This document shows positions 47,839-62,786 of a DNA stretch of 64,000 nucleotides, piece by piece (positions within the stretch are counted from its first letter, which is position 1; the number at the start of each line of letters is the position of its first letter). The DNA is from Bacillota bacterium. Its GTDB lineage: Bacteria; Bacillota; Limnochordia; Darwinibacteriales; Darwinibacteriaceae. The DNA is taken from positions 10,276 through 74,275 of the forward strand of contig JASGVS010000010.1 in the NCBI GenBank assembly GCA_030054835.1. Reading direction: 5' to 3'. The position numbers and the translations under genes are program-made. Below the pieces are notes generated by a model. That model saw nothing but the letters and a program-made list of their open reading frames with translations. It made no database searches and was not told the DNA's origin.

Positions 47839-49962
47839 GTGAAAAGGCTTTGCGAATTTACAAAAAAGCCCCGGGGGATGCTTCTCTTCTCATTGGCACT
47901 CATCATTATCGCCAGCTTCCTAGCGGGCATGTTCCACACCTCGCTCTATTCAGTCAAAGTGGAACGGATCGAATTTGAAACTGAACGGGGTACCCTCACG
48001 GGCCTCCTGTACATGCCCAAGGGAGCCGGAGCGAATGATCCCCGTCCCGTGATCATCACTACCCACGGTTACCTCAACACCAAGGAGATGCAGGACGCAC
48101 CGGCAATTGAAATGTCCCGGCGCGGCTACATCGTCTTGGCCCTGGATATGTACGATCACGGCGACTCCAGATGGGCAGAGCCCATCCCGCCGGGCGGCCA
48201 TTTCGGTACATTCTGGATTTACGCCCAGTTCGATGCGGCCAAGTACATATACGAACAGGATTTCACTAAGAAAGATGCGAACGGTAATGCCTACGTGGCT
48301 GTGAGCGGCCATTCCATGGGTGGTTTTTCCTCCTTTATTGCCATGTACATGGATGAAATGGCTGCGCTGCAAAACGGCTACCGGATGATCTACACCGGTA
48401 TTTCAGTCGGTTCGGACTTTTCCTATGCCGCGGCGGTAGCATCCCAGGAACAGTTCATGGCGGCATTCGGCTCCCGTACCGTCGGTATGATTGCAGCCCA
48501 TTACGATGAGTTTTTCTTTAATAAGTCTGCGGCGGAGAAAACTGAAGCGGAAAAAGCTGTGGTGGGCACCGTCGTCTACAAAGACTTCCCCGCAACCATC
48601 TCGGGTAAGGCTTTCCTCGGCTTAGAACCAACCGCGACTCCAGGCGAGGCAGGCAGGTTCTACACCGTTGATTCGGGCCCGGTCATGATCAATGACATGA
48701 TAGTGCGCGCTTCCGAGCTGGGCCGCCGCGTCATTTACACACCCAATGAGATTCATCCCTGGAACCACTTTTCCAAGCGGACAACGGCACATCTGATCGA
48801 TTTTTACACCAACGCCTTTGCCGGTGTAACATCTCCCAACCAGACTAAGGTAAACCTGAACCCAAGCAACCAAATCTGGTGGCTGAAGGAAGGCTTTAAC
48901 TTCCTTGCCCTGATCGGCTTCTTCCTCTTTGTCATCTCCCTAGTCAGAATACTGCTCACCCTGCCCTTCTTCCAAAAGGCAAGAGTGGCTCAGCCACAGG
49001 TGGTTTCAGCAGGGAAAACCAGAAACGGGAAGATCATTTCTTGGCTGGTAATCATCCTTGCCACACTGCTGCCCGCCATCTTCTTCCCTGCCCTGTTCAA
49101 CAAGACCGCGGCAGGTATGAAGCCCCTCCTCTGGGGAACAATTGTGGTGGCGGTACTCAGCATCGCTTGGCTCTTCTACAAACGCCAGGAGCAGCAAGGA
49201 GAGGACAGCCCCATCTGGATGCAGGCCGGTGCTATCGCCTTCTTCGCACTCCTTTTGGTGATCTGGATCTTGAGAGCCAATTCCCTGCTGGTTTTGGGCA
49301 GCACCTACAACCAGCCCACCACTAACCAGATTGCCTATTGGGCAGTTGCCAGCGGGTTAATTGCCGCCCTAATCAACGTGATTGTCTACTACCTAGACAG
49401 AAAGGGAAAAGGGGCCCGTTTGGAAGCTTATGGGCTGGTGCTTGAGCCCATGGTCATCGTCTCAGCCTTGGCAGCTGCTTTGGTGGCAGTTGTGGCAGGC
49501 TACATCGTGCTCTGGCTGATGCAGGCTCTCTTTGGAGTTGACTTCAGGATCTGGACATTAGCGGTACGCACCTTTAAGTTCGAACATGTCCGCACCGCCC
49601 TCAGGTATCTTCCCTATTTCTTCGTGTTCTACCTGATCAACGCAGTTGCGGTCAATGCCAATACGCGTGGATTGAAGAAATGGGGCTGCCTGGCCGCTGT
49701 GGCCTTGAACTCGGGCGGTCTCATCCTCTGGCTGCTGTACCACTACGGTAAAGTGTTCCTAACGGGAGTGGCCGGTTTCCCAACCGAAACGCTGAACGGC
49801 ATCCTCCTCATTGCCCTGGTACCCGTCTTGGGCATTGCCGGGGTGTATGCCCGTAAGCTGTTTGAGGAAACGGGTAACGTCTGGTTGGCCGCTTTCTTGA
49901 ACGCCATTCTCTTCACTATGATTACCGCAGCCAACACCGCCATGTTCTGGAATTTAATGTAG
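47839..49962 (+). CDS. membrane-anchored alpha/beta hydrolase fused to a C-terminal polytopic (about 8-TM) domain
   Basis: N-terminal TM, then VIITTHGY...GHSMGG nucleophile elbow, then hydrophobic helices from about residue 330 to the end. Confidence 0.55.
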   Translation: MKRLCEFTKKPRGMLLFSLALIIIASFLAGMFHTSLYSVKVERIEFETERGTLTGLLYMPKGAGANDPRPVIITTHGYLNTKEMQDAPAIEMSRRGYIVLALDMYDHGDSRWAEPIPPGGHFGTFWIYAQFDAAKYIYEQDFTKKDANGNAYVAVSGHSMGGFSSFIAMYMDEMAALQNGYRMIYTGISVGSDFSYAAAVASQEQFMAAFGSRTVGMIAAHYDEFFFNKSAAEKTEAEKAVVGTVVYKDFPATISGKAFLGLEPTATPGEAGRFYTVDSGPVMINDMIVRASELGRRVIYTPNEIHPWNHFSKRTTAHLIDFYTNAFAGVTSPNQTKVNLNPSNQIWWLKEGFNFLALIGFFLFVISLVRILLTLPFFQKARVAQPQVVSAGKTRNGKIISWLVIILATLLPAIFFPALFNKTAAGMKPLLWGTIVVAVLSIAWLFYKRQEQQGEDSPIWMQAGAIAFFALLLVIWILRANSLLVLGSTYNQPTTNQIAYWAVASGLIAALINVIVYYLDRKGKGARLEAYGLVLEPMVIVSALAAALVAVVAGYIVLWLMQALFGVDFRIWTLAVRTFKFEHVRTALRYLPYFFVFYLINAVAVNANTRGLKKWGCLAAVALNSGGLILWLLYHYGKVFLTGVAGFPTETLNGILLIALVPVLGIAGVYARKLFEETGNVWLAAFLNAILFTMITAANTAMFWNLM

Positions 49963-50001
49963 GCGGGGTTCAGAGCAGAACAATTTTGTCTAGAAAAGAA
50001 G

Positions 50002-50030
50002 ACGCCCGGGCAATGCCCGGGCGTTTTTGT
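50002..50030. terminator. bidirectional rho-independent terminator between convergent genes
   Basis: ACGCCCGGGC-aat-GCCCGGGCGT perfect 10-bp stem with TTTTT on the plus side and an A-rich/T-rich tract on the other. Confidence 0.65.
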
Positions 50031-50046
50031 GTCAAATTGGAGTCGC

Positions 50047-50958
50047 CTATCCCTTTACAAACAGCGTAACTGCACCTTTTTTGGTTATGGCCTCCGCAGC
50101 CAGGGCATTGCCTTGGGCAAGCCACTCCTGGGGACTGCCGCCCTTTAGGTAAGCGGCCAAAAAGCCTGCGTTAAACACATCCCCTGCCCCTGTGGTATCC
50201 ACAACATCCACCTTGGGTGCCGGGGCAAAGTGTTCCACTGCGCCGTCCTCCGTTTTAGCCGTAAGCAGGGAGCCTTTACCACCCAGCTTCAGCACAATGT
50301 TCCTTGTCCTCTCTCGCAGCACGGCAAGGCCTTCTTCCACAGACTCCTCACCGGTCAGTAGTTTCAGTTCCAATCGGTTGGGAAAGGTGAAGTCCGCTTC
50401 CGCCAGCAGCTTGGTCAACACAGCCTTATCCACCGCATGCACCAGTGGCGATGGATCCCAGGCCACAATACCGCCCGCCCTTTTCACGATCTCCACCGCC
50501 TTAAGGACGAAGTCCGCTTGACCCGGGTCTAGGAGGAAATAGCCTGAGAGAAAGAGCAGTTTTGCCTCGCGCAGGCCGTTAATCACCTCTTCTGTTAACT
50601 CAGGCGTTTCAGCAGAAGCCCCTCGGTAGGAGAACATGGTACGCTCCGCGCTGGCATCGATCATGGTTATGGTGTACCCGGTGGCGCTGCCGTACTGAAT
50701 GCAGCTGGTATCAATCTGAAAGGACTCTAACTGCTCCCTAATCTCTTCCCCCGCGGCATCTCTGCCGATCCTGCCGCAAAACAGGCAGGGGACACCCTGA
50801 TAGGCCAAAGCTATTGCCGTATTGGCCGCGGAACCGCCGGTGTTCCGGATAGATTCCAAGATAGCGGCCTCTTCCCCCGGTTGGGGGAAGCGGTCAAGCC
50901 AATACTGATGATCGAGAAGCAGGTCGCCGATGATAAATACCTTACCTGGAGTAGTCAA
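50047..50958 (-). CDS. psuK: PfkB-family carbohydrate kinase, probably pseudouridine kinase
   Basis: Ribokinase-family GG and DTxGAGD motifs; immediately downstream of psuG. Confidence 0.55.
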   Translation of the reverse strand: MTTPGKVFIIGDLLLDHQYWLDRFPQPGEEAAILESIRNTGGSAANTAIALAYQGVPCLFCGRIGRDAAGEEIREQLESFQIDTSCIQYGSATGYTITMIDASAERTMFSYRGASAETPELTEEVINGLREAKLLFLSGYFLLDPGQADFVLKAVEIVKRAGGIVAWDPSPLVHAVDKAVLTKLLAEADFTFPNRLELKLLTGEESVEEGLAVLRERTRNIVLKLGGKGSLLTAKTEDGAVEHFAPAPKVDVVDTTGAGDVFNAGFLAAYLKGGSPQEWLAQGNALAAEAITKKGAVTLFVKG

Positions 50959-50968
50959 TGTGCTCCCC

Positions 50969-51898
50969 CTAAATCGGGCCCAGTTTGCTGTATTCTACCG
51001 CAATCTGGGCGGCAAGGGCAGCGTTGTTTAAAACGAGCTGAATATTGGCTTCCAGGCTCTTACCTGCCGTTGCCTTTTGGATTGCATCAAGCAGGAAGGG
51101 TGTTGTATCCTTACCTTTAATCCCCAGCCTGTCTGCTTCCGCTAGAGCTTCGTTGATTTTAGCATCGATGTAATCCCTGTCCATGGCAAACTCTTCGGGA
51201 ATGGGATTACCAACTACCATACCCTGGCGACTACCAAGTTCCAGCTGGGCCTTGAAAATCCGGGCGATCTCTGCCGGGTCATCCACCCGGTAGTCAACGC
51301 CAAAGCCGCTGCTGATGGTGTAAAAGGCCGGGAGCTCATCCGTTTTGTAACCCAAGACGGGCACGCCTTGTGTCTCCAAGTATTCAAGGGTCAAGCCAAG
51401 GTCGAGAATAGACTTGGCCCCGGCACAGACAACCATAACCGGTGTCCTGGCCAGTTCTTCTAAGTCAGCGGAAATGTCCATCGTTTCAGTTGCACCGCGG
51501 TGGACACCACCAATACCTCCGGTGCAGAACACCGAAATGCCTGCTAGGTTAGCAACTGCCATTGTTCCTGCCACAGTTGTGGCACCCATGGAACCCCGGG
51601 CAGCTAAAACTGCTAGATCTCGCCTGCTGGCTTTCGGCACCGCTGCCCCTTCCTTACCGAGCAGTTCAATTTCATCGACCGATAAGCCGGCCCGCATTTT
51701 TCCGTTGATTATGGCGATGGTAGCTGGAATGGCACCGTTGTCCCTAACAACCTGTTCAACAGCTAAGGCAGTTTCCACGTTTTTCGGATAAGGCATACCG
51801 TGGGCAATGATGGTAGATTCTAATGCCACCACCGGACCTCCGGCCGCCAGAGTTTCTTCAACTTCTGCCGATCTTACCACCCAATTTGTCTGCAGCAT
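50969..51898 (-). CDS. psuG: pseudouridine-5'-phosphate glycosidase
   Basis: GGPVVALESTIIAHGMPYP, GGIGGVHRGA and the indigoidine-synthase-A-like pattern; GAGGAGGG RBS before the chosen ATG. Confidence 0.85.
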   Translation of the reverse strand: MLQTNWVVRSAEVEETLAAGGPVVALESTIIAHGMPYPKNVETALAVEQVVRDNGAIPATIAIINGKMRAGLSVDEIELLGKEGAAVPKASRRDLAVLAARGSMGATTVAGTMAVANLAGISVFCTGGIGGVHRGATETMDISADLEELARTPVMVVCAGAKSILDLGLTLEYLETQGVPVLGYKTDELPAFYTISSGFGVDYRVDDPAEIARIFKAQLELGSRQGMVVGNPIPEEFAMDRDYIDAKINEALAEADRLGIKGKDTTPFLLDAIQKATAGKSLEANIQLVLNNAALAAQIAVEYSKLGPI

Positions 51899-51963
51899 AT
51901 CGCAGCCCTCCTCAAAAGAATCCGTTCTTTTCTGATTCGTCATAGATCTGGGAGTTCCTTGAA

Positions 51964-53178
51964 CTAAGTGATCAAATGGAGAAAACTTGTGCCGTTTTCC
52001 GGCTCCTCCACAGCAAAGTAATCTGCAATGGTGGCAGCCAAGTCGGAAAGGGTCTCCCTCTCTCCAATCTCAGTGGACCGAATGCCCTGGCCGTAGGCCA
52101 AGACAAACGTCTTTTCCCGGGTGTGCTGGCTGAAACCGATGGTGGGATCATTACCGTGGTCCGCAGATACTAAAAGCAGATCACCCGGCAGCATAGCCTC
52201 CATTATCTTCCCAAGATACTCATCGACGATCATAAGTTTTTCGGCGTAGGTATCGACGTTTTGGGCATGGCCGGCCAAATCCGTTTCCTGTACCGTTCCT
52301 GCCACAAGCCCGGTCATGAACCTATCTAGGGAGCAGTAGATCTCTTCCATCACCTGTGTCGTTTCCACCGCAGGGATTTTCACCGCACCTTCGCATTCAA
52401 TCACATCCTGCATCTTGCCAACCAGCGTTACGGTGTAAAGCCTGCGGGCTAGAATGGAACTGATCTGGCTCTGGGGATCCACACCATAGCCCAGATGTCT
52501 GCTCACATAACCTTTCTTGTACACACCGGACTTGGGCGAATTGACGCCAGTTAAGCCATCTGCCCGGGTTTCTATACTGCCAAGGAGTTGTTCCCGGCTT
52601 ACTCCCCTACCCCCTAGGGCGATCACCCTGTTTACCTTCACCACCGCCCGGACAATGCGGGCGATGGCCAATACCTCTTCAAAGTCGATCTCATCGAGGG
52701 GAGCACTGACGTTGTAAATCTGGCCGTAGTCCGTTTCAATGTTATCCGCTACCACAACGCGATCATCAACCAAAATGTATGGCTTGTCCTGTTCGGGAAA
52801 ACTGACCCGGTGCCCCGCCCTGGTCAGCTCCGTGATTACCTCATCCCGGAAGTAGCTGAAGGGCTTAAGCAGGGGCTTTTTGGGCTTGGTACCCATAATT
52901 TCCTGGTGACCCATATAACTGTCCGCACCGGCGTGGGCCAAGTTCAAAACACCCACTGCACCCAGCTGCTTATCACCGGACAAACGGGGATGCATTAGGA
53001 TCTGATTGATCCCGAGCCTCTCCAAATTGGGGATTTCCAAACGTTCTGCCTGATCCAAAATGTGCTTAAATGTGTTGGCCCCCATATCCTGGGACCTGAC
53101 TTCCGCCACGTCGTCCATGGCTCCGACACCTAGGCTGTCTATAATCACTAAAATAACTCTTTTCATTGCATCACCCAT
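51964..53178 (-). CDS. phosphopentomutase-family protein (DeoB/YhfW-like)
   Basis: KRVILVIIDSLGVG metal-binding N-terminus, ADHGND; about 400 aa; start overlaps the upstream stop (ATGGGTGA). Confidence 0.7.
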   Translation of the reverse strand: MGDAMKRVILVIIDSLGVGAMDDVAEVRSQDMGANTFKHILDQAERLEIPNLERLGINQILMHPRLSGDKQLGAVGVLNLAHAGADSYMGHQEIMGTKPKKPLLKPFSYFRDEVITELTRAGHRVSFPEQDKPYILVDDRVVVADNIETDYGQIYNVSAPLDEIDFEEVLAIARIVRAVVKVNRVIALGGRGVSREQLLGSIETRADGLTGVNSPKSGVYKKGYVSRHLGYGVDPQSQISSILARRLYTVTLVGKMQDVIECEGAVKIPAVETTQVMEEIYCSLDRFMTGLVAGTVQETDLAGHAQNVDTYAEKLMIVDEYLGKIMEAMLPGDLLLVSADHGNDPTIGFSQHTREKTFVLAYGQGIRSTEIGERETLSDLAATIADYFAVEEPENGTSFLHLIT

Positions 53179-54352
53179 TGCGTATTAAGTTGCCCCAGCT
53201 GTCGTAAATCCCGACTAGATGAGGTTCTCCCGTACTGATGCCCTCCACAACCGCCACTTCTGAACGGGTAACAAAGATCTGGGTCCTAAAGGCGTAGACT
53301 ACCGTATCCCCCACCTTTACTGGACTGCCGTTAAGGAGGAGTTCACCGTAATAATCGATGTTTTCCGCCGAACGGGGAGCAGCCGGCAAAATGTTCTCCA
53401 CCGCCCCATCCCAGTTGGTGCCCACCATGGCCTTCTGCACATGGCCCCGGGGGTAAAAGCCTCCGCCGTAGGTGTACGCCTTACCATCGTAGAGATGGGA
53501 TACTTCACTAACGTAGACCAGGGCAGGTGTTTCAGGCTGGCTGCCGTTGGCATTCAAGGGCGTTGTGCCTGTAAAGGCGTGCCCCGGCTCCGCGTGGGTA
53601 CCACCCAGTTCACGCACATGGGCCAGGGAAGCGACTGAGTTTGCACTTGGGGCGTTGATTTGGCTTAGTTCTAGACCCAATTCATCACGCAGGAGCTGAG
53701 CCCCCCGTATGAGCGTTTGGGCATTAGACGTGGCCTCCACCGCACCTGAGTCGTTGTTGTACAAAAAGCAGGGAAAGACGGTAACCCCCGCGATACGGAC
53801 ACCTGTCAGCGCCATAATCTCCCTGGCCGATACTACAAGTCTCTCTAAGCTAAAACCACCCGTTTGGCCGGGGTAAATCAGGTCACCTTCGCCTACTACC
53901 CTCAATAGTAGATCCTGCACCCTACCCTGCTTTTCTGCCTCGAGCGATATTTCCTTTGCTTTTTCCACCGAAAAAACGGTGATCACTTCCGGTTGATACG
54001 AAAGAATCTCAGTAATCATACTAGAGGGAATCTGGACGAGATGACCCACATTACCAAGTCTAATGCCGGCGCGGGCCAGCGTTAAAGCCTCCCATGGGTC
54101 CACTGCCACCGCCTGCTCGATGCCGGTTGCGGCAATGCGCTGGGCTACATGGGGATTGCGGCCGATTTGTTTTGTCATCATATAAAGCTTAAGGCCTAAA
54201 CGATCTGCTTCTTCCTTGAGCAGAACTGCGTTGGCTGTAATTCGGTCCACGTCTAACACATAGGTATTGGGGCCGATCTGACCCCTGTGGTGTAGCTCAA
54301 TGGCGGCCTCAATCAGTGCCCTGTTCCGTTTTATTGTTGCGTCTAAAAACAT
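53171..54352 (-). CDS. alanine-racemase-fold PLP enzyme (YhfX-like)
   Basis: N-terminal TIM-barrel alanine-racemase-N-like pattern with KQIGRNPH (PLP Lys region) and a C-terminal beta domain. Confidence 0.6.
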   Translation of the reverse strand: MFLDATIKRNRALIEAAIELHHRGQIGPNTYVLDVDRITANAVLLKEEADRLGLKLYMMTKQIGRNPHVAQRIAATGIEQAVAVDPWEALTLARAGIRLGNVGHLVQIPSSMITEILSYQPEVITVFSVEKAKEISLEAEKQGRVQDLLLRVVGEGDLIYPGQTGGFSLERLVVSAREIMALTGVRIAGVTVFPCFLYNNDSGAVEATSNAQTLIRGAQLLRDELGLELSQINAPSANSVASLAHVRELGGTHAEPGHAFTGTTPLNANGSQPETPALVYVSEVSHLYDGKAYTYGGGFYPRGHVQKAMVGTNWDGAVENILPAAPRSAENIDYYGELLLNGSPVKVGDTVVYAFRTQIFVTRSEVAVVEGISTGEPHLVGIYDSWGNLIRNG

Positions 54353-55477
54353 TTAACCACCCCGTACATCTGCCTTGTCCACTGCTTCCTGCAGTACCCT
54401 GAGGACAGTATCTGCCCCTGCCCGCATGGGATTAATCCTGATCATGTAGTCTGCCAATTTGGGGTCTTGGGCCAGGAAAGTGCCTGAAACCCTGTAAAAC
54501 ATGGCCGCCACTTCATACCTCGACTCAGCTCCCACCGGATAGGGTGCTCCCCCTAGAAGATTAGTTTGCTCCAGCACCTTTTTGGCAATGGGCTGTTCAA
54601 ATTCTACCAAAATCACTCTGCTCTGGGCATTGGCAATGAAAGCAGACCTGATGCCCTTTACCTCGCCTGCGTTGAGCCTAGCCACAACCTCATCGGCCGC
54701 TTCCTTCTGCAGGGCAAGCATAACAGGGGCGTAGACGAGGGAGCGCAGTGCCTCCAGCGCTTCGTGGCCCTGTACCTGGCTTCCACCTGAGTAATTTAGC
54801 TCGTTAAGCTTATCGATTGTGCTTTGATCAGCCAGAACGCAGCCTATCCCTTCCGGGCCAAGGAGCTTAAAGAGGGAAAAGGCACTGGCGCTTCCCCCTG
54901 CCTCTACGCCAATTTTTTCCGCCTTCATTACAGCGTAGTTATCATCTACTAGAATAAAGAGGGATGGGTTGATTTCCTTAAGCAGTTCAATTGTCTCGCC
55001 TAAGTGATAGCGATCGGAAGGAATCTGTCTGGTATGCTGGACTAGGCAGAAATCAACCGCCTGGATCACGTTTTTGTCCCAGGTCTGCGGTTCGTTAAAG
55101 TCCACCGCCACTGTTTCTAAGCCCATGGACTCAATGATCACCCTCGTGGTGGGATAGATGGGTGCGGTATGGACCAGGATTTTCTGTCCCGGTCCGGCTT
55201 TGGCGTTAAAGACAGAGCGGAGGGCACCCGTGCCTGCTCCCCGCACGAGGGCGCAGGCCTCGGCGTGGAAAAACTCGGCCAAAACCCTTTCCACCTTTTC
55301 CGTGTAAACAGGCTTGCCCTTTCCGGGAACAACACCGTAGTCACCGGCCTGGAGAAACTCATCGCCGCGAAACTCGCGCATGATCAAATCGACCAGTCTG
55401 AATTGAAACTCCTTAGCCTGTTCTAAATCGATTGTGGCAATGGGATAAGTCCGCATCTCTATCCTCCTAAACCGCAA
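54353..55477 (-). CDS. PLP-dependent enzyme (YhfS-like, Cys/Met-metabolism fold)
   Basis: Fold type I pattern with the S-x-x-K motif FSLFKLLG; 374 aa. Confidence 0.5.
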   Translation of the reverse strand: MRFRRIEMRTYPIATIDLEQAKEFQFRLVDLIMREFRGDEFLQAGDYGVVPGKGKPVYTEKVERVLAEFFHAEACALVRGAGTGALRSVFNAKAGPGQKILVHTAPIYPTTRVIIESMGLETVAVDFNEPQTWDKNVIQAVDFCLVQHTRQIPSDRYHLGETIELLKEINPSLFILVDDNYAVMKAEKIGVEAGGSASAFSLFKLLGPEGIGCVLADQSTIDKLNELNYSGGSQVQGHEALEALRSLVYAPVMLALQKEAADEVVARLNAGEVKGIRSAFIANAQSRVILVEFEQPIAKKVLEQTNLLGGAPYPVGAESRYEVAAMFYRVSGTFLAQDPKLADYMIRINPMRAGADTVLRVLQEAVDKADVRGG

Positions 55478-56366
55478 GCAACCTGCGGGGGTTATGAATG
55501 AGCATCTGATCCAGCTGTTCGTCGGTTATACCGTGCTCCTTCGCTTTGGGTATAAACTCCTCAAAGAGATAGTTGAAACCAATACCGCCGTTCTTCTTCA
55601 GGTGACTCTTACGGGTCATGTCCTGGGAGAGGACAATCTGGTCCAGGTGACCGCGCTCAATCAGGTACTTAATATGTTCGATCCTCACATCATCACTTTC
55701 GTACTTAGCCTTGCCGATGGTGTCAAAGCCCAAGTAACAGCCGCGATCGGCAATCTTAAGGTGGTAGTCCCGATTGCAGTTCAGATCCAAATGACCAATC
55801 AGGATCTTACCTGGATCCACTTTGTACTGGGCAAAGAGGTCTAGCTGTTCCAGGGCCATGGTACCCAAGGTAGTATGGGTGAAGATGGGATGGCCTGTCT
55901 CTAGGTGAGTTAGGATACTGGCCTTGAGCATTCTCATCTCCATGGGCGTGATCTCGTTCTTACTTGTTCCGACCTCGCCAATGATGTGTGCCTTAACTCC
56001 CGTACCGTCCATACCTTCCTCAATTTCCCGAATAAAGATCTCAGCTATTTCCCCTTCACTTAACTGGTACATCTCAGCGGGAATAAACGGTTCTTTGTAA
56101 CAGCCGGTGCTGGCAATAACATTTACGCCGGTCGTTTGACTGATCCGGCGCAGAGTTTCCACATCCCGGCCCATGCCGATGTTGGTTACCTCCACAAGGG
56201 ATTGGATCTGGCTGTTGGCAAGTTCGGTAATAACCGCCTCAACGTCATCGAACTTGGCATCTTCATCCTGCTTAACCCCGGAAAGGTCTATGTGCAAATG
56301 TTCATGGATATAAGTCCTGCCCAAGTCTTCACTCTTAATTTTACCGTTCACAGTATAAATGGCCAT
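55467..56366 (-). CDS. php: phosphotriesterase homology protein (Php/YhfV-like TIM-barrel metal hydrolase)
   Basis: N-terminal LGRTYIHEHL metal-binding HxH; about 300 aa with further His/Asp ligands. Confidence 0.8.
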   Translation of the reverse strand: MAIYTVNGKIKSEDLGRTYIHEHLHIDLSGVKQDEDAKFDDVEAVITELANSQIQSLVEVTNIGMGRDVETLRRISQTTGVNVIASTGCYKEPFIPAEMYQLSEGEIAEIFIREIEEGMDGTGVKAHIIGEVGTSKNEITPMEMRMLKASILTHLETGHPIFTHTTLGTMALEQLDLFAQYKVDPGKILIGHLDLNCNRDYHLKIADRGCYLGFDTIGKAKYESDDVRIEHIKYLIERGHLDQIVLSQDMTRKSHLKKNGGIGFNYLFEEFIPKAKEHGITDEQLDQMLIHNPRRLLAV

Positions 56367-57458
56367 CTAAATCAACCCTTCCTCTTTCCGCTGGTAGCTG
56401 TGGAGAAAATAGCGCTGGAAAAGCTCGGGAGGTGAAAAGGCTTGTGCCAGCATTCTGCCCACCGAGAGAGACAACGATCCACCCCGTTTGCCTTCCGGCC
56501 CCAACACCAAAAGCCCCGATGCCAGTTCACCCGTTGGAATACTCACTGCGGTGGCATTCAGCATGTTTGCTACCCTGATTAAGCCCTTGCCGCCCCTAAT
56601 CTGCATCTCTTTCCCCGTTTCACCCCACGTACCCAGGACCGAATCTCCCCGGCCCCACAGATCTACTGGGCCCTCCTGGGAGAGGATCAGATCAATGCCT
56701 GCAGCTAGCAACTCCCCACACTTGGCTATCAGTTCTTCCCTGCTCGGCAGCGCCAAGTCAGCGGCACCAAAGTCAGCTTCCACAATCTCCACCCAATCCT
56801 CCAGTTTGCCCAGGGCGTGCTGCAAGCCGCTGTTTTCCCGGCTACCGTGTGGGACAGCAACCTTGACTCTCTCCGCCTTCATTTCGTCTGCGCACAGAAG
56901 CTGGTAGTCAGCAACGTGAGCCAATACTTCAAGGCCAAGTTGGTAGTCGTAGGTTATTATACCCACTCCCGGGACGAACTCAATCTTGTCTGTGGAGATC
57001 CTTGGGTTCTGACCCTTGAGACCAAGTCCTTTAGCCATAAAACCAAAAAGCCCGGTGCTGATTGCCGGACCCAGAACAGAACCGCCCCCGTCTGTACCCA
57101 GGGCAAAATCATTAATTCCGAGCAGAATGTTAAGACAGGATCCACTGGATGAGCCGGTCATAACCCCGCCTGTGAGTGGATTGACAAGGTCCACATCGAT
57201 TGCCCTCCCGCCCCGGGCCATACTGTCAATGGTGTGGAAAAGATAGCCGGCTGCTGTCAGTTTGTCAATGAGATTCCAGCTGATCTGCTTGGTGTTCTTT
57301 ACCCCAAAGAGGTAGACATCCCGTTCTCCCTGCTGGATAAGCTCTGCCGCCTCATCCAACACCTCTGGCCTGGCGTACTCCACCGTACGCCTCAGGTTTT
57401 TTTCTGCTGCCAAGGCCGCTTTGGCTACCTTGAGCATTTGAGTGAGGTTATGTTGCAA
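56367..57458 (-). CDS. hypothetical protein (cluster member, function unknown)
   Basis: 363-aa ORF with strong coding pattern and operon context; the GSSSGS stretch only loosely resembles the amidase signature. Confidence 0.4.
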   Translation of the reverse strand: MQHNLTQMLKVAKAALAAEKNLRRTVEYARPEVLDEAAELIQQGERDVYLFGVKNTKQISWNLIDKLTAAGYLFHTIDSMARGGRAIDVDLVNPLTGGVMTGSSSGSCLNILLGINDFALGTDGGGSVLGPAISTGLFGFMAKGLGLKGQNPRISTDKIEFVPGVGIITYDYQLGLEVLAHVADYQLLCADEMKAERVKVAVPHGSRENSGLQHALGKLEDWVEIVEADFGAADLALPSREELIAKCGELLAAGIDLILSQEGPVDLWGRGDSVLGTWGETGKEMQIRGGKGLIRVANMLNATAVSIPTGELASGLLVLGPEGKRGGSLSLSVGRMLAQAFSPPELFQRYFLHSYQRKEEGLI

Positions 57459-57518
57459 AGCAAATCACTTCCTAAAAGGGGCGAAGCCGGTTTTCCCGGC
57501 TCCACCCTCCCTTACTGT

Positions 57519-58787
57519 TTACAAAAGACCAAGTACGGACAGTACGTTGGCCAGCACGCCAACCAAAATGGCTGCGATGGGTCCAACTGCCATCCTTACA
57601 ACGGGCGTACCGGCGATTTCGTTTAAGATGTAAAGACCGGCCACCGTGAAGAAACCCAAACCGGGAGCAATGGCGTTGGCTGCATTCATACCGCCAACCA
57701 ACAGGGCGATCTCCAGCAGCTTGCTCATGGCGTTCCGGATGTTATCCCCAGCATTTCTAATACCGGGGTATTTATCCAAGGAAGCACCCAAGCGCTCCAG
57801 CAACAGGACTTCTACGCCCATTACGGCTGCACCTACCACAAGAGCCAAAATTGGTGTGCGGATGAAAAGACCAACTGCAAAGACCAGAGTCATTCCCACC
57901 GGTCCGTAGACGCCTGTGGCGATGGCGGTGGAGGCAATGAGGGGGATAAACCCAATACCCCTAGCCAAAGCGGCTAGGCCTGCATCAATGTAGTTGCCCT
58001 CTGCTGCCAGGTTCAAGGAAATGGGGTCACCGGCGATAATCCCATAGGATGTGGCAGCAGCGACCAAACCACCCATGACCATGAGGGGAATGATGTTGCT
58101 CTTAATGCGCTTCACACGCTCGCCAAAGACGGAGGCCAAATCGACGCCGTCTTCCTCCCCTTTCTCCCGGGCAGCAAAGAAGATCAAAACCAGCATACCG
58201 ACGATCAGGGCCATACCTTCTGCGTTAAGTGTAACGGTGGCCGAGCCGATGCTGATTGCGCCGATCATGACTGTAAGCTGCCTGGCGAGAATGGAAAGGA
58301 CCAAGTTGATAATACCCTTCCGTACGCCGAACTGATAGGCGGTAGCCAATGCCGGGAATACGGCAAAGGCCGCCACGATGGGCGTACCAACTGCGCCAAG
58401 GTTGTCCATAACGTTGACAGGCAGCTTCTGGAATACGTTGACAATAGCTTCTAAGCCTACTACCAAACCGGCACCGTAAACAGCACCTACAACACCGGCA
58501 ATGATTGTACCCCGATTACCATCAGGACTGAACGAACCGATGATATCTGTTCCTAACAAAATACTGTGAATAAGAATGATGGTTGAAGTTAGCGAAAAGG
58601 GAATTCCGAACCCGATAACCAGTCCGAAACTCATGGCAAAGGATGTTGCAGCCAATTCCGCTCTGCTCATGCGGCCTTCCAAATGCTCGGGCATGATTGG
58701 CCTGAGACCGTCGTTAAACACGGCTATGCCGCGGTTAGCCATAATGGCGGCCAAGGCACTTACTACCGCCGCTAATAACATCTTCAT
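57519..58787 (-). CDS. polytopic membrane protein (YhfT-like putative transporter)
   Basis: 422 aa, 10-12 predicted transmembrane helices. Confidence 0.5.
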   Translation of the reverse strand: MKMLLAAVVSALAAIMANRGIAVFNDGLRPIMPEHLEGRMSRAELAATSFAMSFGLVIGFGIPFSLTSTIILIHSILLGTDIIGSFSPDGNRGTIIAGVVGAVYGAGLVVGLEAIVNVFQKLPVNVMDNLGAVGTPIVAAFAVFPALATAYQFGVRKGIINLVLSILARQLTVMIGAISIGSATVTLNAEGMALIVGMLVLIFFAAREKGEEDGVDLASVFGERVKRIKSNIIPLMVMGGLVAAATSYGIIAGDPISLNLAAEGNYIDAGLAALARGIGFIPLIASTAIATGVYGPVGMTLVFAVGLFIRTPILALVVGAAVMGVEVLLLERLGASLDKYPGIRNAGDNIRNAMSKLLEIALLVGGMNAANAIAPGLGFFTVAGLYILNEIAGTPVVRMAVGPIAAILVGVLANVLSVLGLL

Positions 58788-58800
58788 TTACCGTTCCTCC

Positions 58801-59199
58801 TTAATTGTCTTCCCCTTTTTTCAACAGTTCCCTCACTAGAACCGGAATGACCTGTTTGTAATGATCACCGGTAAAACCAAAGGCAACCTTGCCGGCTTTG
58901 ACCGCCTGGACAATTTCTTCCTCCTGTGGCGGGCGCCCGGGCATGGAGAGGGAAACGCACTTGTCCCGTGTCAAAAGTGCGATAGCCATGCTCAAAGCCC
59001 CACCGCCCCCGGTGTGACAAGCGCCGACATAATAGTCTGCTTTGCCCGTTTTGACATCATTGGCGGCGGCCAGATCCGACTTAACTTCCGCTGTCACCTT
59101 CCCCTCACCCAACTCCTCGATGAGGTTCTTAATGTTCTGCTTCTCCATCTGTCCCCCAACTACGATTTTCGACTTCATCACCTCCCATCCCTTATTCAA
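58801..59199 (-). CDS. small soluble protein, YhfU-like (DUF2620-like)
   Basis: 132 aa, motif GACHTGGGGALSMAIALL; position in the cluster matches yhfU. Confidence 0.4.
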   Translation of the reverse strand: MNKGWEVMKSKIVVGGQMEKQNIKNLIEELGEGKVTAEVKSDLAAANDVKTGKADYYVGACHTGGGGALSMAIALLTRDKCVSLSMPGRPPQEEEIVQAVKAGKVAFGFTGDHYKQVIPVLVRELLKKGEDN

Positions 59200-59602
59200 C
59201 GTCTTCTACTAACGCGCAAAGGTGCAGCGCTAAAAAATCCTTTTCTGTCTGGGGCAGAGTTATCTGCAGTCTCTTTTCCAGGGGAAGGTAAAGTTCGTGC
59301 AGTTCCCGATAGGTCTGGGTCTGTTTCACCTCGGCGAAGATGTCTTCATCTATTGGCTCCAGCTCTTCGCCCCTTTTGATCCTACCCAGCGCCATGGCCA
59401 AATGGCTGACCAACATAGCCCCGTTGTCTTCAGTGATAGTCAGGGAGTACCTTTTCTCCACAGCCTGAACAAGTTCAATTACCGCATCCCTTACCGCTTC
59501 GTCAATTTCCTTGGCATTAACCAGTAGATCCAACCTAAACAACAATAGTTCGTCCATCAAGGTACCCCCTGCACTAATACTTTGGAATGATGCTGCCGGC
59601 AA
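59192..59602 (-). CDS. PRD-domain-like small regulator (YhfY-like)
   Basis: 136 aa, helical, with a conserved His in LVSHLAMAL and LALHLCAL reminiscent of PRD phosphorylation sites. Confidence 0.45.
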   Translation of the reverse strand: MPAASFQSISAGGTLMDELLLFRLDLLVNAKEIDEAVRDAVIELVQAVEKRYSLTITEDNGAMLVSHLAMALGRIKRGEELEPIDEDIFAEVKQTQTYRELHELYLPLEKRLQITLPQTEKDFLALHLCALVEDVE

Positions 59603-60518
59603 GAACCCCTTCCTGCACAGCCGTGATCATTTCACTGTCTATTATCCTGAGCAATGTCGTCTTTATTTCCGGCCTCTCTTTGTTGATAACCAAGACTGCC
59701 GTGGCCGCTTGGGAACTGACTTCCATACTCTTGGGATTTGTGAGCTCACCTAGGTTATAATTTAGCCCCTTCTCCATAATTTCATCCTTGTTCCACACAG
59801 CCGCATCGATCTCGCCGCTTTGGAGTTTGTTGAGGATCTGGTTGTAAAATGTCTCAACATACTCCACTTCTAAACCTTCACATTCATATTTTGTCAAAAG
59901 AAACTGGTCGGGCGATTGGGGATCGAGCCCAACGCGCATACCCGGTTCGATTTTGGTGTGGGTACTGTCCCGGAAAATGACCATATGACTACCCACGTAA
60001 GTACCTGGGCTAAACAGAAACAGAACCTCAAGATTGTCATGTTTAGCCAGCTCGTACCAGACGGCCAGCTGGGAAGTCACTGCAAAGTCATAGTCGCCTG
60101 CAGCAAGGGCTTCCACCCTTTTGTCAGCCCCCCGCATAAAAGCAAGGCTGAAGGGCCATTCCTCCCCTTCGAACGCTCTGTAAAGACCCGTAGCCATTCC
60201 CTCATAGCGTTTGGAGTAAGGCAGGGGCATGACACCCCGAATTGTCCCTAGGCCCGCCACGCGCCACAACTTTTGGTAGTCAATTGCGCTGATAAATGTC
60301 CCCAAGTGGCCGCGGCTCTCCAAACTGACTGCCCCTTCAGCCTGCAGCAGTTTCAAGGCAGCTTGGACTGTTCCGCGTCCAGTCTCATACTGTTTGGCGT
60401 AATCTCCTATAGTCGAAATCCGGTCTGACGGGCCTAGGGAAATGAACTCCCGGGCCAAGAGAACGGCTACCGCTCCATTTTTAGACATGAGCTTCTTAGC
60501 AGCAAACACTAGCATCAT
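59574..60518 (-). CDS. YhfZ-like regulator (N-terminal HTH-like segment plus a substrate-binding-protein-like domain)
   Basis: 314 aa; first gene of the cluster; 29-nt overlap with the next gene. Confidence 0.5.
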   Translation of the reverse strand: MMLVFAAKKLMSKNGAVAVLLAREFISLGPSDRISTIGDYAKQYETGRGTVQAALKLLQAEGAVSLESRGHLGTFISAIDYQKLWRVAGLGTIRGVMPLPYSKRYEGMATGLYRAFEGEEWPFSLAFMRGADKRVEALAAGDYDFAVTSQLAVWYELAKHDNLEVLFLFSPGTYVGSHMVIFRDSTHTKIEPGMRVGLDPQSPDQFLLTKYECEGLEVEYVETFYNQILNKLQSGEIDAAVWNKDEIMEKGLNYNLGELTNPKSMEVSSQAATAVLVINKERPEIKTTLLRIIDSEMITAVQEGVLAGSIIPKY

Positions 60519-60541
60519 CCTTAAGATTCAAAGGCATTATA

Positions 60542-60558
60542 CAATATACCGTATATTG
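60542..60558. promoter_or_regulatory. perfect 8-1-8 palindrome CAATATAC-c-GTATATTG immediately downstream of the -10 of the cluster promoter; candidate operator
   Basis: Inverted repeat read directly from the sequence. Confidence 0.35.
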
Positions 60559-60587
60559 ATTTTACCAGATCCAGAAGTGGTTGGCAA
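60559..60587 (-). promoter_or_regulatory. sigma-A promoter TTGCCA-17-TAAAAT for the yhf-like cluster
   Basis: Read on the reverse complement: TTGCCAaccacttctggatctggTAAAAT. Confidence 0.45.
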
Positions 60588-60742
60588 TACTTCTTAGCAT
60601 TTTGTAAAAGCCCGGTTCACAAAGGGGACCAACAGATTCCACCTCACGATGGACACCCTTGCGCTTGGCTAACGGTTGGCAACTGCCAGCCCCCGTAGCG
60701 GACTTTCACCGCCAGGTTACGCGCCATGCGTGGCGCACATGA

Positions 60743-60777
60743 AAAAGCCGTATCTGCAGCAGTGTGCAGATACGGCC
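60743..60777 (-). terminator. rho-independent terminator downstream of the 5'-nucleotidase gene
   Basis: GCCGTATCTGCA-gcagtg-TGCAGATACGGC perfect 12-bp stem followed on the minus strand by TTTTT. Confidence 0.65.
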
Positions 60778-60789
60778 CATTTTAACTTA

Positions 60790-62754
60790 TTAACGATAGA
60801 TTTTCCTAGCACGCTCCTTGCGCCTACGCCTGATCCGACCAGTAATCAAGGAGGCGGTGACGCCCAAAGCAATTATCACTCCGTACACGACCAAGGAGAT
60901 TTTATTCGGGTTTTTCAAAAGGTCGATGGGATGCAAACTGAAATCTACAATTTTCCTTCCTTCAGCTTCCCTGTATTTGGCCGGAATTTCCGGCAGCCCA
61001 TCCACTTCCCCAAAGGACTGGAGGTACTGGGCAATGGCATACCATTCCTTGACCTCCCGGGGCTCGCCTTGGGAGTAATCGTAAATGATGTGTTCCTCAA
61101 AATCCTCAATTGGATTGCCGTACCTATCCTTGGGCACTAAAGACAGGAGACCAAAGGACTTGGCACTTACAGCGGGCAGCATCTGCCCCGCGTATAACCC
61201 CGCCACCACCCGATAGAGCTTGTCGTTTTCAAGCTCCACTAAACTGCCATCTGGGTTCTGCAGCTTAACAGTAGTGACCTTGTTAAAGAACAAACGCCTG
61301 GGGTTGAACTCATACCTGAGACCGGACATGTAAAGCTGGGCTGATCCCATAATAGGTGCTACGGACGCATCCACTTCACAAAGCGTCTTCAGCTCCTTTC
61401 CGGTTAAATAGACAGAAACCAGTGGATAACCGGGGACCCCATCGGCACCTATACCGAGCGAACTTACAATAAACACCTGGGAGGTGGTTATATCGCCCTC
61501 CACAAAGGAGCCGCGGATGGTACCGGCAGGGACAATGGCCACCGCTACCGGTTCGTAAGCGTCACCTTCCGCCTGTTCTACCGCGTAGATGTAGGCGTCG
61601 CTAATTAGACTACCCAAAGGCTCTTCCCTATGTTGGGCACCAATTTCAAAGGAAGGTGTGAAACTGAAAGGTGAGTGGGCCAATACCTGATCAAACTCCA
61701 GGCCAAAACGGGCTAGATACTCCGTTTCCACTATCTCTTTGTACTCGGCAATAACCCCCAATAGCTCACCGTCTTCCGCCACACTCTCGTCAATAGGCTT
61801 AAGACTGTATTCCACCAACTCCCAGCCATCCCCCTGTCTGGCCAGGCGGATAACCCCTAAGTTCATCCCGTATTCACCGCAGGATCCTATCACAGTATTG
61901 CCAACAAGCAGCGGTTCAGGCAGCAGCGTGTGGCTGTGACCAGAGACAATCACATCGATCCCAGGAACTTCCTTGGCTAACATCTCATCTTCCGTTTTGG
62001 GGCTCTTCCCGTCCGTACCTGCGTGGGAGAGGCAGATTACCAAGTCTACGCCCTCTTCGTTTCTGAGAATGTCGACAATGCGCTGGGCGGCATCCAGGTA
62101 CTCCTCAAAGGCAACCTCGGACATGGGTGCGTTAGAAGCGGCGTCCCTGCCCATTAGGCCGAAGACACCAATCTTAACGCCTTTTTTCTCCAGCACCACA
62201 TAGCTTTTCACCGGGTATCTGTGCATAGCAGTCTGAAGCTGCTCTAGGGTGGGCGTTAGGTTCCCCTCTTCATCCAGGGGAAAGAGGATGTTCGAGGCCA
62301 CTATCTGGGGTAACCGTTCCCCACTCTCCTTAGCCGCCGTTATACTCTCCGCTAAACCCTTGGCCCGAAAATCATATTCATGGTTGCCAAAAGTAACCAC
62401 ATCATAGCCCATCCTACCCATCAGACGGAGTTGGGGCGCATGGCTCGCGAAAATGGTTTGGAAAAGCGTACCCATGGAGAAATCTCCCCCGTCCAGGAGG
62501 AGCAACTCCGGATCCCGCTCTCTCTCGGCATTAATGGCTGCAAGCAGCCTGGCATAGCCACCCACAGCCGTTATCTCCCCATCCAACAGCACTGTATAGG
62601 GCAGCAGATGGTCATGGAGATCGTGGGTGAACAGGATGGTCAAACTCTCAGCCCCCGCCGCCGCTGGCGCGAACAGGATGCTGAACATAAGGAACAAAAT
62701 TAGTACGACTTTACGCGGTGATTGCCTCTTCTCCACTTTCCAACCTCTTTCCAT
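60790..62754 (-). CDS. secreted, C-terminally membrane-anchored bifunctional 5'-nucleotidase / 2',3'-cyclic phosphodiesterase-like metallophosphatase
   Basis: Signal peptide, calcineurin-like GDxxDRG-type metal motifs (HDLHDHL; GNHEYD), 5'-nucleotidase C-terminal domain, terminal TM helix plus an RRRRK stop-transfer; GAGGAG RBS before the chosen ATG. Confidence 0.8.
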   Translation of the reverse strand: MERGWKVEKRQSPRKVVLILFLMFSILFAPAAAGAESLTILFTHDLHDHLLPYTVLLDGEITAVGGYARLLAAINAERERDPELLLLDGGDFSMGTLFQTIFASHAPQLRLMGRMGYDVVTFGNHEYDFRAKGLAESITAAKESGERLPQIVASNILFPLDEEGNLTPTLEQLQTAMHRYPVKSYVVLEKKGVKIGVFGLMGRDAASNAPMSEVAFEEYLDAAQRIVDILRNEEGVDLVICLSHAGTDGKSPKTEDEMLAKEVPGIDVIVSGHSHTLLPEPLLVGNTVIGSCGEYGMNLGVIRLARQGDGWELVEYSLKPIDESVAEDGELLGVIAEYKEIVETEYLARFGLEFDQVLAHSPFSFTPSFEIGAQHREEPLGSLISDAYIYAVEQAEGDAYEPVAVAIVPAGTIRGSFVEGDITTSQVFIVSSLGIGADGVPGYPLVSVYLTGKELKTLCEVDASVAPIMGSAQLYMSGLRYEFNPRRLFFNKVTTVKLQNPDGSLVELENDKLYRVVAGLYAGQMLPAVSAKSFGLLSLVPKDRYGNPIEDFEEHIIYDYSQGEPREVKEWYAIAQYLQSFGEVDGLPEIPAKYREAEGRKIVDFSLHPIDLLKNPNKISLVVYGVIIALGVTASLITGRIRRRRKERARKIYR

Positions 62755-62786
62755 TCTTTTCTCCTCAAGCTGGTTAGTTTTCCACA

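Follow-up and report, generated by a model that had tools for sequence, protein, structure and literature searches.

We analysed a 64,000-nucleotide stretch of DNA from a Bacillota bacterium (contig JASGVS010000010.1; the whole stretch is referred to as the window), in which eleven open reading frames (ORFs) lie head to tail and tightly packed on the minus strand between positions 50047 and 60518. Eight of them encode counterparts of the php-yhfSTUWXYZ proteins of Escherichia coli, a ninth encodes a short amidase-signature (AS) hydrolase, and the last two encode the pseudouridine-5'-phosphate glycosidase PsuG and a ribokinase-like kinase of the PfkB family. In our reading, this block is probably a single operon controlled by the regulator YhfZ, in which a conserved nine-gene php-yhf pathway for a sugar (or sugar-phosphate)/amino-acid conjugate has gained a portable pseudouridine module at the 3' end. 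The cluster is conserved among bacteria, and structures have been solved for three of its proteins, but we found no function for it in the literature. The locus and its relatives offer several handles, namely a ninth member (an amidase with an intact catalytic triad, apparently substituted in some loci by a non-orthologous enzyme), the resemblance of the DUF2620 fold to RpiB, and a candidate YhfZ operator. The recurrent neighbours of the cluster (NagB, HPr/Enzyme I, MurQ/MupG, and psuG with its kinase) would narrow the substrate to a phosphorylated sugar/amino-acid conjugate, and the ribokinase-like subfamily found beside psuG is flagged as a probable non-orthologous pseudouridine kinase. The block had been described before, in an original prediction made from the letters of the DNA alone; what that prediction observed was confirmed, and its interpretation was partly supported.

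Eight core proteins are orthologues of the E. coli php-yhf proteins

Proteins were assigned by Pfam and NCBIfam profile searches, in which YhfT, DUF2620, YhfZ_C, YhfS-like_C, and YhfX-like_C all scored above the Pfam cutoffs. When the window was compared by BLASTP with the E. coli K-12 locus (L001; loci are given L numbers where they need to be told apart), each of the eight php/yhf proteins had a full-length one-to-one counterpart, with 31-52% identity and E values from 3e-18 to 7e-126. Chance cannot account for eight co-linear orthologues. The membership and coordinates of the php-yhfSTUWXYZ set in the original prediction were upheld by the profile searches for every gene.

The regulator YhfZ combined HTH_41 with YhfZ_C (258 bits), reached 380 bits with the NCBIfam YhfZ equivalog (cutoff 260), was 34% identical to E. 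coli YhfZ, and matched PDB 2OZZ. YhfY carried a PRD (51.5 bits), was 31% identical to its E. coli counterpart, and weakly matched the EF_0829 PRD family (TIGR03582). YhfT scored 583 bits with the Pfam family of that name and was 37% identical to its E. coli counterpart; even at E <= 10, it matched none of the other Pfam families, transporters included. Php scored 285 bits with PTE and was 43% identical to E. coli Php, and the NCBIfam model that ranked next, behind phosphotriesterase-related protein, was phospho-furanose lactonase (4e-45). Two of the proteins are pyridoxal-phosphate (PLP) enzymes. YhfS (YhfS-like_C, 157 bits) was 52% identical to E. coli YhfS (PDB 4J8L), and its closest characterised relatives were methionine gamma-lyase, enzymes of Cys/Met metabolism, and cysteine desulfurase. 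YhfX (YhfX-like_C, 117 bits, plus Ala_racemase_N) was 47% identical to E. coli YhfX (PDB 4KBX), with alanine racemase, YggS, and D-threonine aldolase as closest characterised relatives. YhfW scored 537 bits with the phosphopentomutase-paralogue model PRK12383 (cutoff 254) and was 43% identical to E. coli YhfW; with the DeoB models it reached 184 and 147 bits, under their cutoffs.

Relatives of YhfT were found in 453 of ~186,000 species-level genomes (one genome per species), which belong to Enterobacteria, Bacillota, Thermotogae, Fusobacteria, and Spirochaetes. The yhf sample consisted of the best 80 loci, each taken together with up to 10 kb of sequence to either side, and the set of complete loci comprised 60 species-level loci that spanned at least 18 kb. 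The window had been predicted to differ from E. coli in gene order; comparison with the K-12 locus confirmed this, and the order in the window (Z-Y-U-T-amidase-Php-S-X-W) was the commonest one, found in 25 of the 60 complete loci. Two metagenome-assembled genomes (MAGs) of Bacillota/Negativicutes (L050 and L053) carried two divergent yhfT copies, ~57% and 43% identical to YhfT of the window, in one rearranged cluster.

The ninth core gene encodes a short amidase-signature protein

The 363-residue protein had originally been listed as an extra unknown. That it is an additional gene was confirmed, and its status as an unknown was not. An AlphaFold2 (AF2) model built on 40 homologues had a predicted local distance difference test (pLDDT) score of 92.6, and all 50 PDB matches listed for it by Foldseek were AS enzymes (E 1e-13 to 4e-11), among them urethanases, allophanate hydrolase, FAAH, GatA, malonamidase, and 6-aminohexanoate cyclic-dimer hydrolase. 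Residues K54, S103, and S127 were invariant in 40 homologues, and S103/S104 and S127 aligned to GGSS and GGS in amidases of known structure. The protein thus appears to have an intact Ser-cisSer-Lys triad, with K54, judged by its position, as the putative triad lysine. It missed the gathering score of the Pfam Amidase family (25.1 bits against 27), with the match confined to the signature stretch (residues 99-140), and it is ~100 residues shorter than typical AS enzymes. Members of its family are mostly ~350-390 residues long; the 394 matches came mainly from Clostridia, Halanaerobium, and Thermoanaerobacter, and many were annotated as 'amidase family protein'. Judged by its fold and conserved residues, the protein is very probably an active, unusually short amidase.

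The AS amidase was present in 39 of the 60 complete loci, usually between yhfT and php as in the window. A beta-lactamase-family serine hydrolase was encoded in 8 of the 21 loci that lack the amidase versus 4 of the 39 that have it (Fisher p = 0.017). In some loci this hydrolase occupies the usual region of the amidase, and in Streptobacillus and Sneathia it sits inside the cluster, between php and yhfS. In all, it was associated with the yhf cluster in L049 (12192-13421), L057 (7321-8541), and 12 other loci. It looks like a non-orthologous replacement of an amide-hydrolysis step. Together with the AS fold and the triad, the anticorrelation of the two hydrolases suggests that a step of amide hydrolysis is needed.

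YhfU has an RpiB-like fold

YhfU scored 148 bits with DUF2620 in Pfam, and a start at Met8 gives a protein of 125 residues, as in its homologues. The best PDB fold matches of its AF2 model (pLDDT 94) were type-B ribose-5-phosphate isomerases (RpiB), with template modelling (TM) scores of 0.69/0.60/0.64 and probability 1.0. A loop that is invariant in the family, G-A-C54-x-T56-G-G-G-G, comes right after strand 3, and the catalytic CGTG loop of RpiB occupies the same place as its Cys54-x-Thr56. When the YhfU profile was aligned with E. coli RpiB by hhalign, Cys fell on Cys and Thr on Thr, at an E value (0.024) and probability (2%) that are not significant, and YhfU did not match Pfam LacAB_rpiB even at E <= 10. 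A classical IIB component of the phosphotransferase system (PTS) was rejected as a candidate, since lactose IIB fitted poorly (TM 0.41) and the Cys of YhfU lies after strand 3, not strand 1. The gene yhfT was directly 3' of yhfU in 74 of the 80 loci. YhfU could thus act as an isomerase like RpiB, or it could handle phosphate as a partner of the membrane protein.

DUF2620 also weakly matched PF14272 ('glycine-rich SFCGS', the EF_0830 family) in 28 of 34 members, and a fusion of PRD with DUF2620 was found (P0146, 216 residues, 11 member sequences). These two observations hint at a module shared with the EF_0829/EF_0830 cluster, made up of a PRD protein, a small Cys/Gly-rich protein, and a membrane protein.

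PsuG is accompanied by a ribokinase-like kinase

The original prediction had named the last two genes psuG and psuK. The first name stood. PsuG scored 442 bits with Indigoidine_A, was 60% identical to E. coli PsuG, and scored 363 bits with PDB 4GIJ, and by these measures it is an orthodox orthologue of the E. coli enzyme. The residues aligned to E31, K93, D149, K166, and N289 of 4GIJ were all conserved; these are active-site positions of the enzyme and include its catalytic Lys, Glu, and Asp. The second name did not stand as a statement of orthology. The kinase belongs to PfkB (182 bits) and was 30% identical to RbsK (E 5e-29) versus 24% to E. coli PsuK (E 5e-7). As an E. coli-type PsuK it was rejected, with 20 bits in the NCBIfam PsuK model against a cutoff of 540, and as a true ribokinase it was rejected as well, with 145 bits against the ribokinase equivalog cutoff of 300. 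Its best solved relatives were ribokinases, and none of its 39 PDB matches at E <= 1e-10 was a chain named pseudouridine kinase. In contrast, the kinase beside psuG in Thermoanaerobacterium was of PsuK type (35% identity, 5e-61).

Relatives of the kinase were found beside psuG in other genomes. In L095 and L097 (Anaerolineaceae-type and other contigs), homologues 45-48% identical to the kinase of the window adjoined psuG, with no yhf genes. In two metagenome loci (L102 and L103), also without yhf genes, psuG was followed by a kinase 41-47% identical to that of L088, a locus described below. The subfamily and psuG thus occur together in both gene orders in loci without yhf genes, and since the kinase pairs with psuG without them, the pair is a portable, self-contained module. 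Judged by its gene context, the kinase is most simply explained as a non-orthologous pseudouridine kinase.

The eleven genes have an operon-like layout

The gene junctions were either overlaps or gaps of at most 65 nucleotides, the largest being 60 nucleotides between yhfT and the amidase gene and 65 nucleotides between yhfW and psuG (Table 1). The latter value presupposes that psuG starts at ATG 51898, a start that agrees with the gene calls of three independent assemblies. In a consensus scan, strong terminator-like hairpins were found only outside the eleven-gene block, one at each end, and no internal terminator-like site of any strength was found within it. The original prediction that no terminator separates psuG from the genes before it was sustained, as the consensus scan found none at the yhfW-psuG junction and folding there was no better than that of shuffled sequence (z = +0.94). 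The hairpin 3' of the kinase gene would end the operon and is also terminal to a convergent gene, and the one that belongs to the upstream 5'-nucleotidase gene is predicted to insulate the operon on its 5' side. Together, these sequence features make co-transcription of all eleven genes a well-supported prediction.

The best-placed promoter-like site lies 5' of yhfZ. It is a consensus match only, as such sites were near chance across the region (12 observed vs 8.3 +/- 2.8 expected). A perfect palindrome follows directly after its -10 element and occurs once within the window. At least 12 other loci, L007, L010, L022, L058, L028, L042, L045, and L084 among them, had related palindromes (AATATACA..TGTATATT or TACAAAATTTTGTA) ~40-100 nucleotides 5' of yhfZ. 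The palindrome is likely to be the operator of the GntR-type YhfZ, for which it is the candidate. When positions 49000-62000 were scanned with Rfam (E <= 1), riboswitches, leaders, and antiterminators were absent from the results, which consisted of two sub-threshold chance matches, both at the 3' terminator.

Between the upstream terminator and the yhfZ promoter lies a G+C-rich stretch of ~140 nucleotides, which starts with GTGCG and folds as one long hairpin with imperfect pairing (-57 kcal/mol, z = -1.7). Rfam gave no match for this stretch, the window has no second copy of it, and it may be a remnant of a mobile element or of a structured RNA.

Table 1. Positions of genes and sequence elements in and around the eleven-gene block of the window
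Feature	Position	Strand	Description
yhfZ	59574-60518	-	Regulator with GntR-type helix-turn-helix and YhfZ_C ligand-binding-like domain; likely start GTG 60509
yhfY	59192-59602	-	PRD domain only; assigned by PRD Pfam and E. coli YhfY matches
yhfU	58801-59199	-	DUF2620, RpiB-like fold; likely start Met8 at 59178
yhfT	57519-58787	-	Polytopic membrane protein, presumed transporter
AS hydrolase gene	56367-57458	-	Short amidase-signature hydrolase, 363 residues
php	55467-56366	-	Phosphotriesterase-family (PTE) binuclear-metal hydrolase
yhfS	54353-55477	-	Fold-type I PLP enzyme, YhfS-like_C domain
yhfX	53171-54352	-	Fold-type III (alanine-racemase-like) PLP enzyme; Ala_racemase_N and YhfX-like_C
yhfW	51964-53178	-	Phosphopentomutase paralogue, alkaline-phosphatase superfamily
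psuG	50969-51943	-	Pseudouridine-5'-phosphate glycosidase; likely start ATG 51898 after GAGGAGGG ribosome-binding site
PfkB kinase gene	50047-50958	-	Ribokinase-like
Terminator-like hairpin, 3' end	50002-50024	-	Strong; 10 bp with 9 G-C pairs, then T-run; 3' of the kinase gene
Terminator-like hairpin, 5' side	60745-60778	-	Strong; belongs to upstream 5'-nucleotidase gene
Promoter-like site	60559-60587	-	TTGCCA, 17 nt, TG-TAAAAT; 10/12 consensus matches
Palindrome	60542-60558		Perfect, 17 bp, CAATATAC-G-GTATATTG; candidate YhfZ operator
G+C-rich stretch	60600-60745	-	Long imperfect hairpin
5'-nucleotidase gene	60790-62787	-	5'-nucleotidase / 2',3'-cyclic-nucleotide phosphodiesterase family; directly upstream of the operon
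Convergent gene	47839-49962	+	707-residue protein
Antitoxin-Uma2 fusion ORF	47025-47387	+	Phd/YefM antitoxin domain fused to N-terminal part of Uma2 nuclease domain
Uma2 ORF	47442-47753	+	Separate ORF with the rest of Uma2

The link between psuG and the yhf genes is restricted to one lineage

Outside the window, the eleven-gene arrangement was confined to anaerobic-digester contigs of the same species and to the MAG GCA_040364275.1 (L088). The proteins shared by L088 and the window that were compared were 60-86% identical (amidase 62%, PsuG 74%, kinase 60%), and L088 has the same surface 5'-nucleotidase gene upstream of the operon. Elsewhere the two gene sets were found apart, in two independent samples of 80 loci each, one built around yhf and the other around psuG. 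No psuG gene lay in the flanks (up to 10 kb) of any of the 80 other yhf loci, and yhf genes were missing from all of the 80 metagenomic loci with the closest PsuG (63-72% identity). Where a kinase was detected beside psuG in the latter sample, it was usually of PsuK type and upstream. A broad link between psuG and the yhf genes was therefore rejected. In Thermoanaerobacterium thermosaccharolyticum, genes for an energy-coupling factor (ECF) transporter, psuK, and psuG lie just 5' of yhfZ across a gap of ~700 bp; this one adjacency in ~80 loci compares with a rough chance expectation of ~0.3 and is not significant.

Since psuG is absent from the other yhf loci sampled and yhf genes are absent from the psuG loci sampled, the join is lineage-specific, and by itself such a join cannot establish a modified nucleoside as the substrate of the core cluster. 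In our reading, the psuG-kinase pair was added to the operon later and within this lineage, which implies co-regulation with the core, and the addition may reflect a shared scavenging lifestyle. As a clue to the role of the cluster, this minor, lineage-restricted operon variant is weak. The synteny with clostridial loci that the original prediction proposed to compare was found for the order of the nine-gene core and not for the psuG linkage, which is confined to the species of the window and L088.

The core cluster may degrade a sugar/amino-acid conjugate

The idea of a conjugate as substrate fits the two PLP enzymes, the amidase, the phospho-sugar mutase, the RpiB-like protein, and the lactonase-like Php, together with NagB, HPr, and Enzyme I downstream in other genomes. 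The nine-gene core would take up and break down an amide-containing, phosphorylated sugar/amino-acid conjugate. The regulator YhfZ would bind the operator, YhfT would be the membrane carrier, working with the small RpiB-like YhfU, and the PRD protein YhfY would couple expression or activity to the PTS. The AS amidase would open the amide bond and Php would hydrolyse a (phospho)lactone- or lactam-type bond. The racemase-like YhfX and the gamma/beta-lyase-like YhfS would handle the amino-acid part, and YhfW (of phosphomutase type) and YhfU (of isomerase type) would pass the sugar phosphate to central metabolism. With the psuG-kinase salvage module joined to the 3' end of the operon in this lineage, both would be switched on together. 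The original prediction had proposed processing of a modified nucleoside or of a sugar-amino-acid conjugate; the enzyme set and the neighbours NagB, HPr, and Enzyme I speak for the conjugate, and the inference of a modified nucleoside from the psuG link was undercut by the two samples described above.

Neighbours were counted as the loci that have a gene within 6 kb of the yhf cluster, usually on the same strand. A beta-lactamase-family hydrolase was found in 14 loci, Opp-type ATP-binding cassette (ABC) ATPases in 12, NagB in 9 (in six of them directly after yhfW, with a representative that passes the nagB equivalog cutoff), HPr in 5, MupG in 4, PTS Enzyme I in 3, MurQ in 3, and a true ribokinase in 2 (L013 and L017). 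In other genomes, the genes for HPr and Enzyme I come immediately after yhfW and share its strand. Four Bacilli loci without yhfW (L044, L051, L073, and L084) had a PHP-domain phosphatase gene within ~6 kb, which in L084 was chained directly downstream, and the mutase step may be replaced by a phosphatase in these loci.

These neighbours bear on two other explanations. The whole eleven-gene operon might serve one pathway for modified nucleosides or RNA-derived ribosyl/amino-acid conjugates, such as amino-acid-bearing tRNA nucleosides alongside pseudouridine, which we consider unlikely. The surface 5'-nucleotidase would supply nucleosides, YhfT would import them, and the PfkB kinase would phosphorylate the ribose 5'-OH; the amidase, Php, and the PLP enzymes would strip the amino-acid side group, and PsuG, YhfW, and YhfU would deliver the ribose phosphate. 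Such a pathway is consistent with the pentose-phosphate relatives of three core proteins (YhfW-DeoB, YhfU-RpiB, and Php-phospho-furanose lactonase), with psuG and a ribokinase-like kinase in the same operon, both in the window and in L088, and with the membrane-anchored 5'-nucleotidase directly upstream in the two. The psuK-psuG pair with its ECF transporter directly 5' of yhfZ in Thermoanaerobacterium, the true ribokinase near the cluster in L013 and L017, and the top fold matches of the amidase, which include urethanases and allophanate hydrolase, enzymes that cleave carbamoyl or ureido links, also fit. However, psuG and the yhf genes were apart in both 80-locus samples, the adjacency in Thermoanaerobacterium is single, lies across a 700-bp gap, and is roughly at chance, and the genes that elsewhere adjoin the cluster most often on its own strand (NagB, HPr/Enzyme I, and MurQ/MupG) point to hexosamines or cell-wall sugars. 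A cytidine-deaminase-like neighbour in Geosporobacter was rejected as nucleoside evidence, as the gene is a housekeeping TadA. We likewise doubt that the php-yhf core salvages an amino-acid-bearing ribosyl compound and that the lineage thereby holds a complete operon for the recycling of modified nucleosides. If that were true, a substrate class would be given for eight E. coli genes, and DUF2620 would be a new branch of RpiB-like enzymes.

In the other explanation, the core would degrade a hexosamine/amino-acid conjugate of cell-wall or glycation origin to glucosamine-6-phosphate, and psuG and the kinase would be unrelated passengers that landed downstream. The substrate could be a muropeptide-like compound, a glucosamine-amino acid amide, or a Heyns or Amadori compound. 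The loci with NagB, mostly directly after yhfW, and those with MupG and MurQ favour it, as do the beta-lactamase-family hydrolase, whose wider family includes enzymes of D-peptidase type, the Opp-type ATPases, and HPr and Enzyme I. The E. coli cluster adjoins the fructoselysine frl operon, and a racemase-like YhfX would suit D-amino acids. Nevertheless, NagB, MurQ, and MupG occur in a minority of loci, perhaps as part of neighbouring sugar operons, and none is in the window; YhfW and Php resemble pentose/furanose enzymes more than hexose enzymes; and the psuG-kinase pair is kept across two lineages whose shared proteins have diverged as given above, which argues against a purely neutral passenger. 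We consider this explanation unlikely. The sugar itself may be a hexosamine, as favoured by NagB, MurQ, MupG, and the frl neighbours in E. coli, or a pentose, as favoured by the DeoB-, RpiB-, and furanose-lactonase-type relatives and the psuG/ribokinase neighbours.

Several points weigh against the combination of a conjugate pathway and an added pseudouridine module under YhfZ that we prefer. In the operon genes and five adjacent ORFs, Pfam found no PTS Enzyme II, HPr, or Enzyme I, and the PRD of YhfY was the only PTS-related domain. The neighbours are split, with NagB, MurQ, and MupG pointing to hexosamine or cell-wall sugars, and with psuG and the ribokinase of L013/L017, along with the DeoB-, RpiB-, and phospho-furanose-lactonase-type relatives, pointing to a pentose or nucleoside. 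Weak promoter-like hexamers lie within yhfW and psuG, so that psuG and the kinase gene could be transcribed separately. YhfU could be a phospho-carrier or regulatory partner instead of an isomerase, in line with the PRD-DUF2620 fusion and the weak SFCGS match. The E. coli structures 4J8L, 4KBX, and 2OZZ were all deposited as uncharacterised, and we found no functional study of yhfS-Z or of php (in this sense) in the literature, where one paper merely lists the genes, nor one of DUF2620 or the EF_0829/SFCGS cluster.

Genes flanking the operon

The 5'-nucleotidase-family protein encoded directly upstream of the operon starts with a signal peptide and carries a membrane anchor at its C terminus. 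This arrangement is kept in L088, and the protein could supply nucleosides outside the cell. On the other side, the product of the gene that converges on the operon matched only alpha/beta-hydrolases, weakly and in its N-terminal part, and fell into none of the NCBIfam families; the gene is in the same position in the contigs of the same species and is absent from L088. Beyond it, the antitoxin-Uma2 fusion and the ORF with the rest of Uma2 are a split or decayed toxin-antitoxin-like gene, and the split is identical in three independent assemblies.

Comparison with known systems

The closest known system is php-yhfSTUWXYZ of E. coli K-12 (b3376-b3383). All eight orthologues are shared, and in both cases they are contiguous, on one strand, and headed by the regulator. 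The E. coli order is Z-Y-X-W-php-U-T-S instead of Z-Y-U-T-amidase-Php-S-X-W, and the window adds the AS amidase gene and, at the 3' end, psuG and the kinase gene. The E. coli cluster has the frl operon beside it, whereas no frl operon neighbours the block in the window. The nine-gene form of Firmicutes and Thermotogae, as in Geosporobacter ferrireducens (L005) and T. thermosaccharolyticum (L002), is identical to the core of the window in content and order, with the AS amidase between yhfT and php. Elsewhere this form ends at yhfW or runs into nagB, HPr, or Enzyme I, and only in the lineage of the window and in L088 is it followed by psuG and the PfkB kinase gene.

The EF_0829/EF_0830 (AHA_3910/3911) cluster, which according to TIGRFAM descriptions comprises a PRD protein, a 'glycine-rich SFCGS' protein, and membrane proteins, resembles the block in that a PRD-only protein and a small Cys/Gly-rich protein are encoded beside one or more polytopic membrane proteins. 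It differs in that the profile matches were below the family cutoffs, the enzyme sets are not the same, and YhfT had no detectable similarity to other families. With the RpiB/LacAB isomerases, YhfU shares the fold of its model and the position of the Cys-x-Thr loop after strand 3. It is shorter, carries GG after strand 1 in place of the Asp-His of RpiB, shows no significant sequence similarity, and is genetically coupled to a membrane protein.

The psuK (yeiC)/psuG (yeiN) pair of E. coli, described in the PsuK structure paper (PMC9247573), is similar to the 3' end of the block, as PsuG is closely related in the two and a PfkB-family kinase gene adjoins psuG in both. However, the kinase of the window is ribokinase-like and has no helix-turn-helix domain, its gene follows psuG, and the pair, which is without a psuT-type transporter gene, is embedded in a larger operon.

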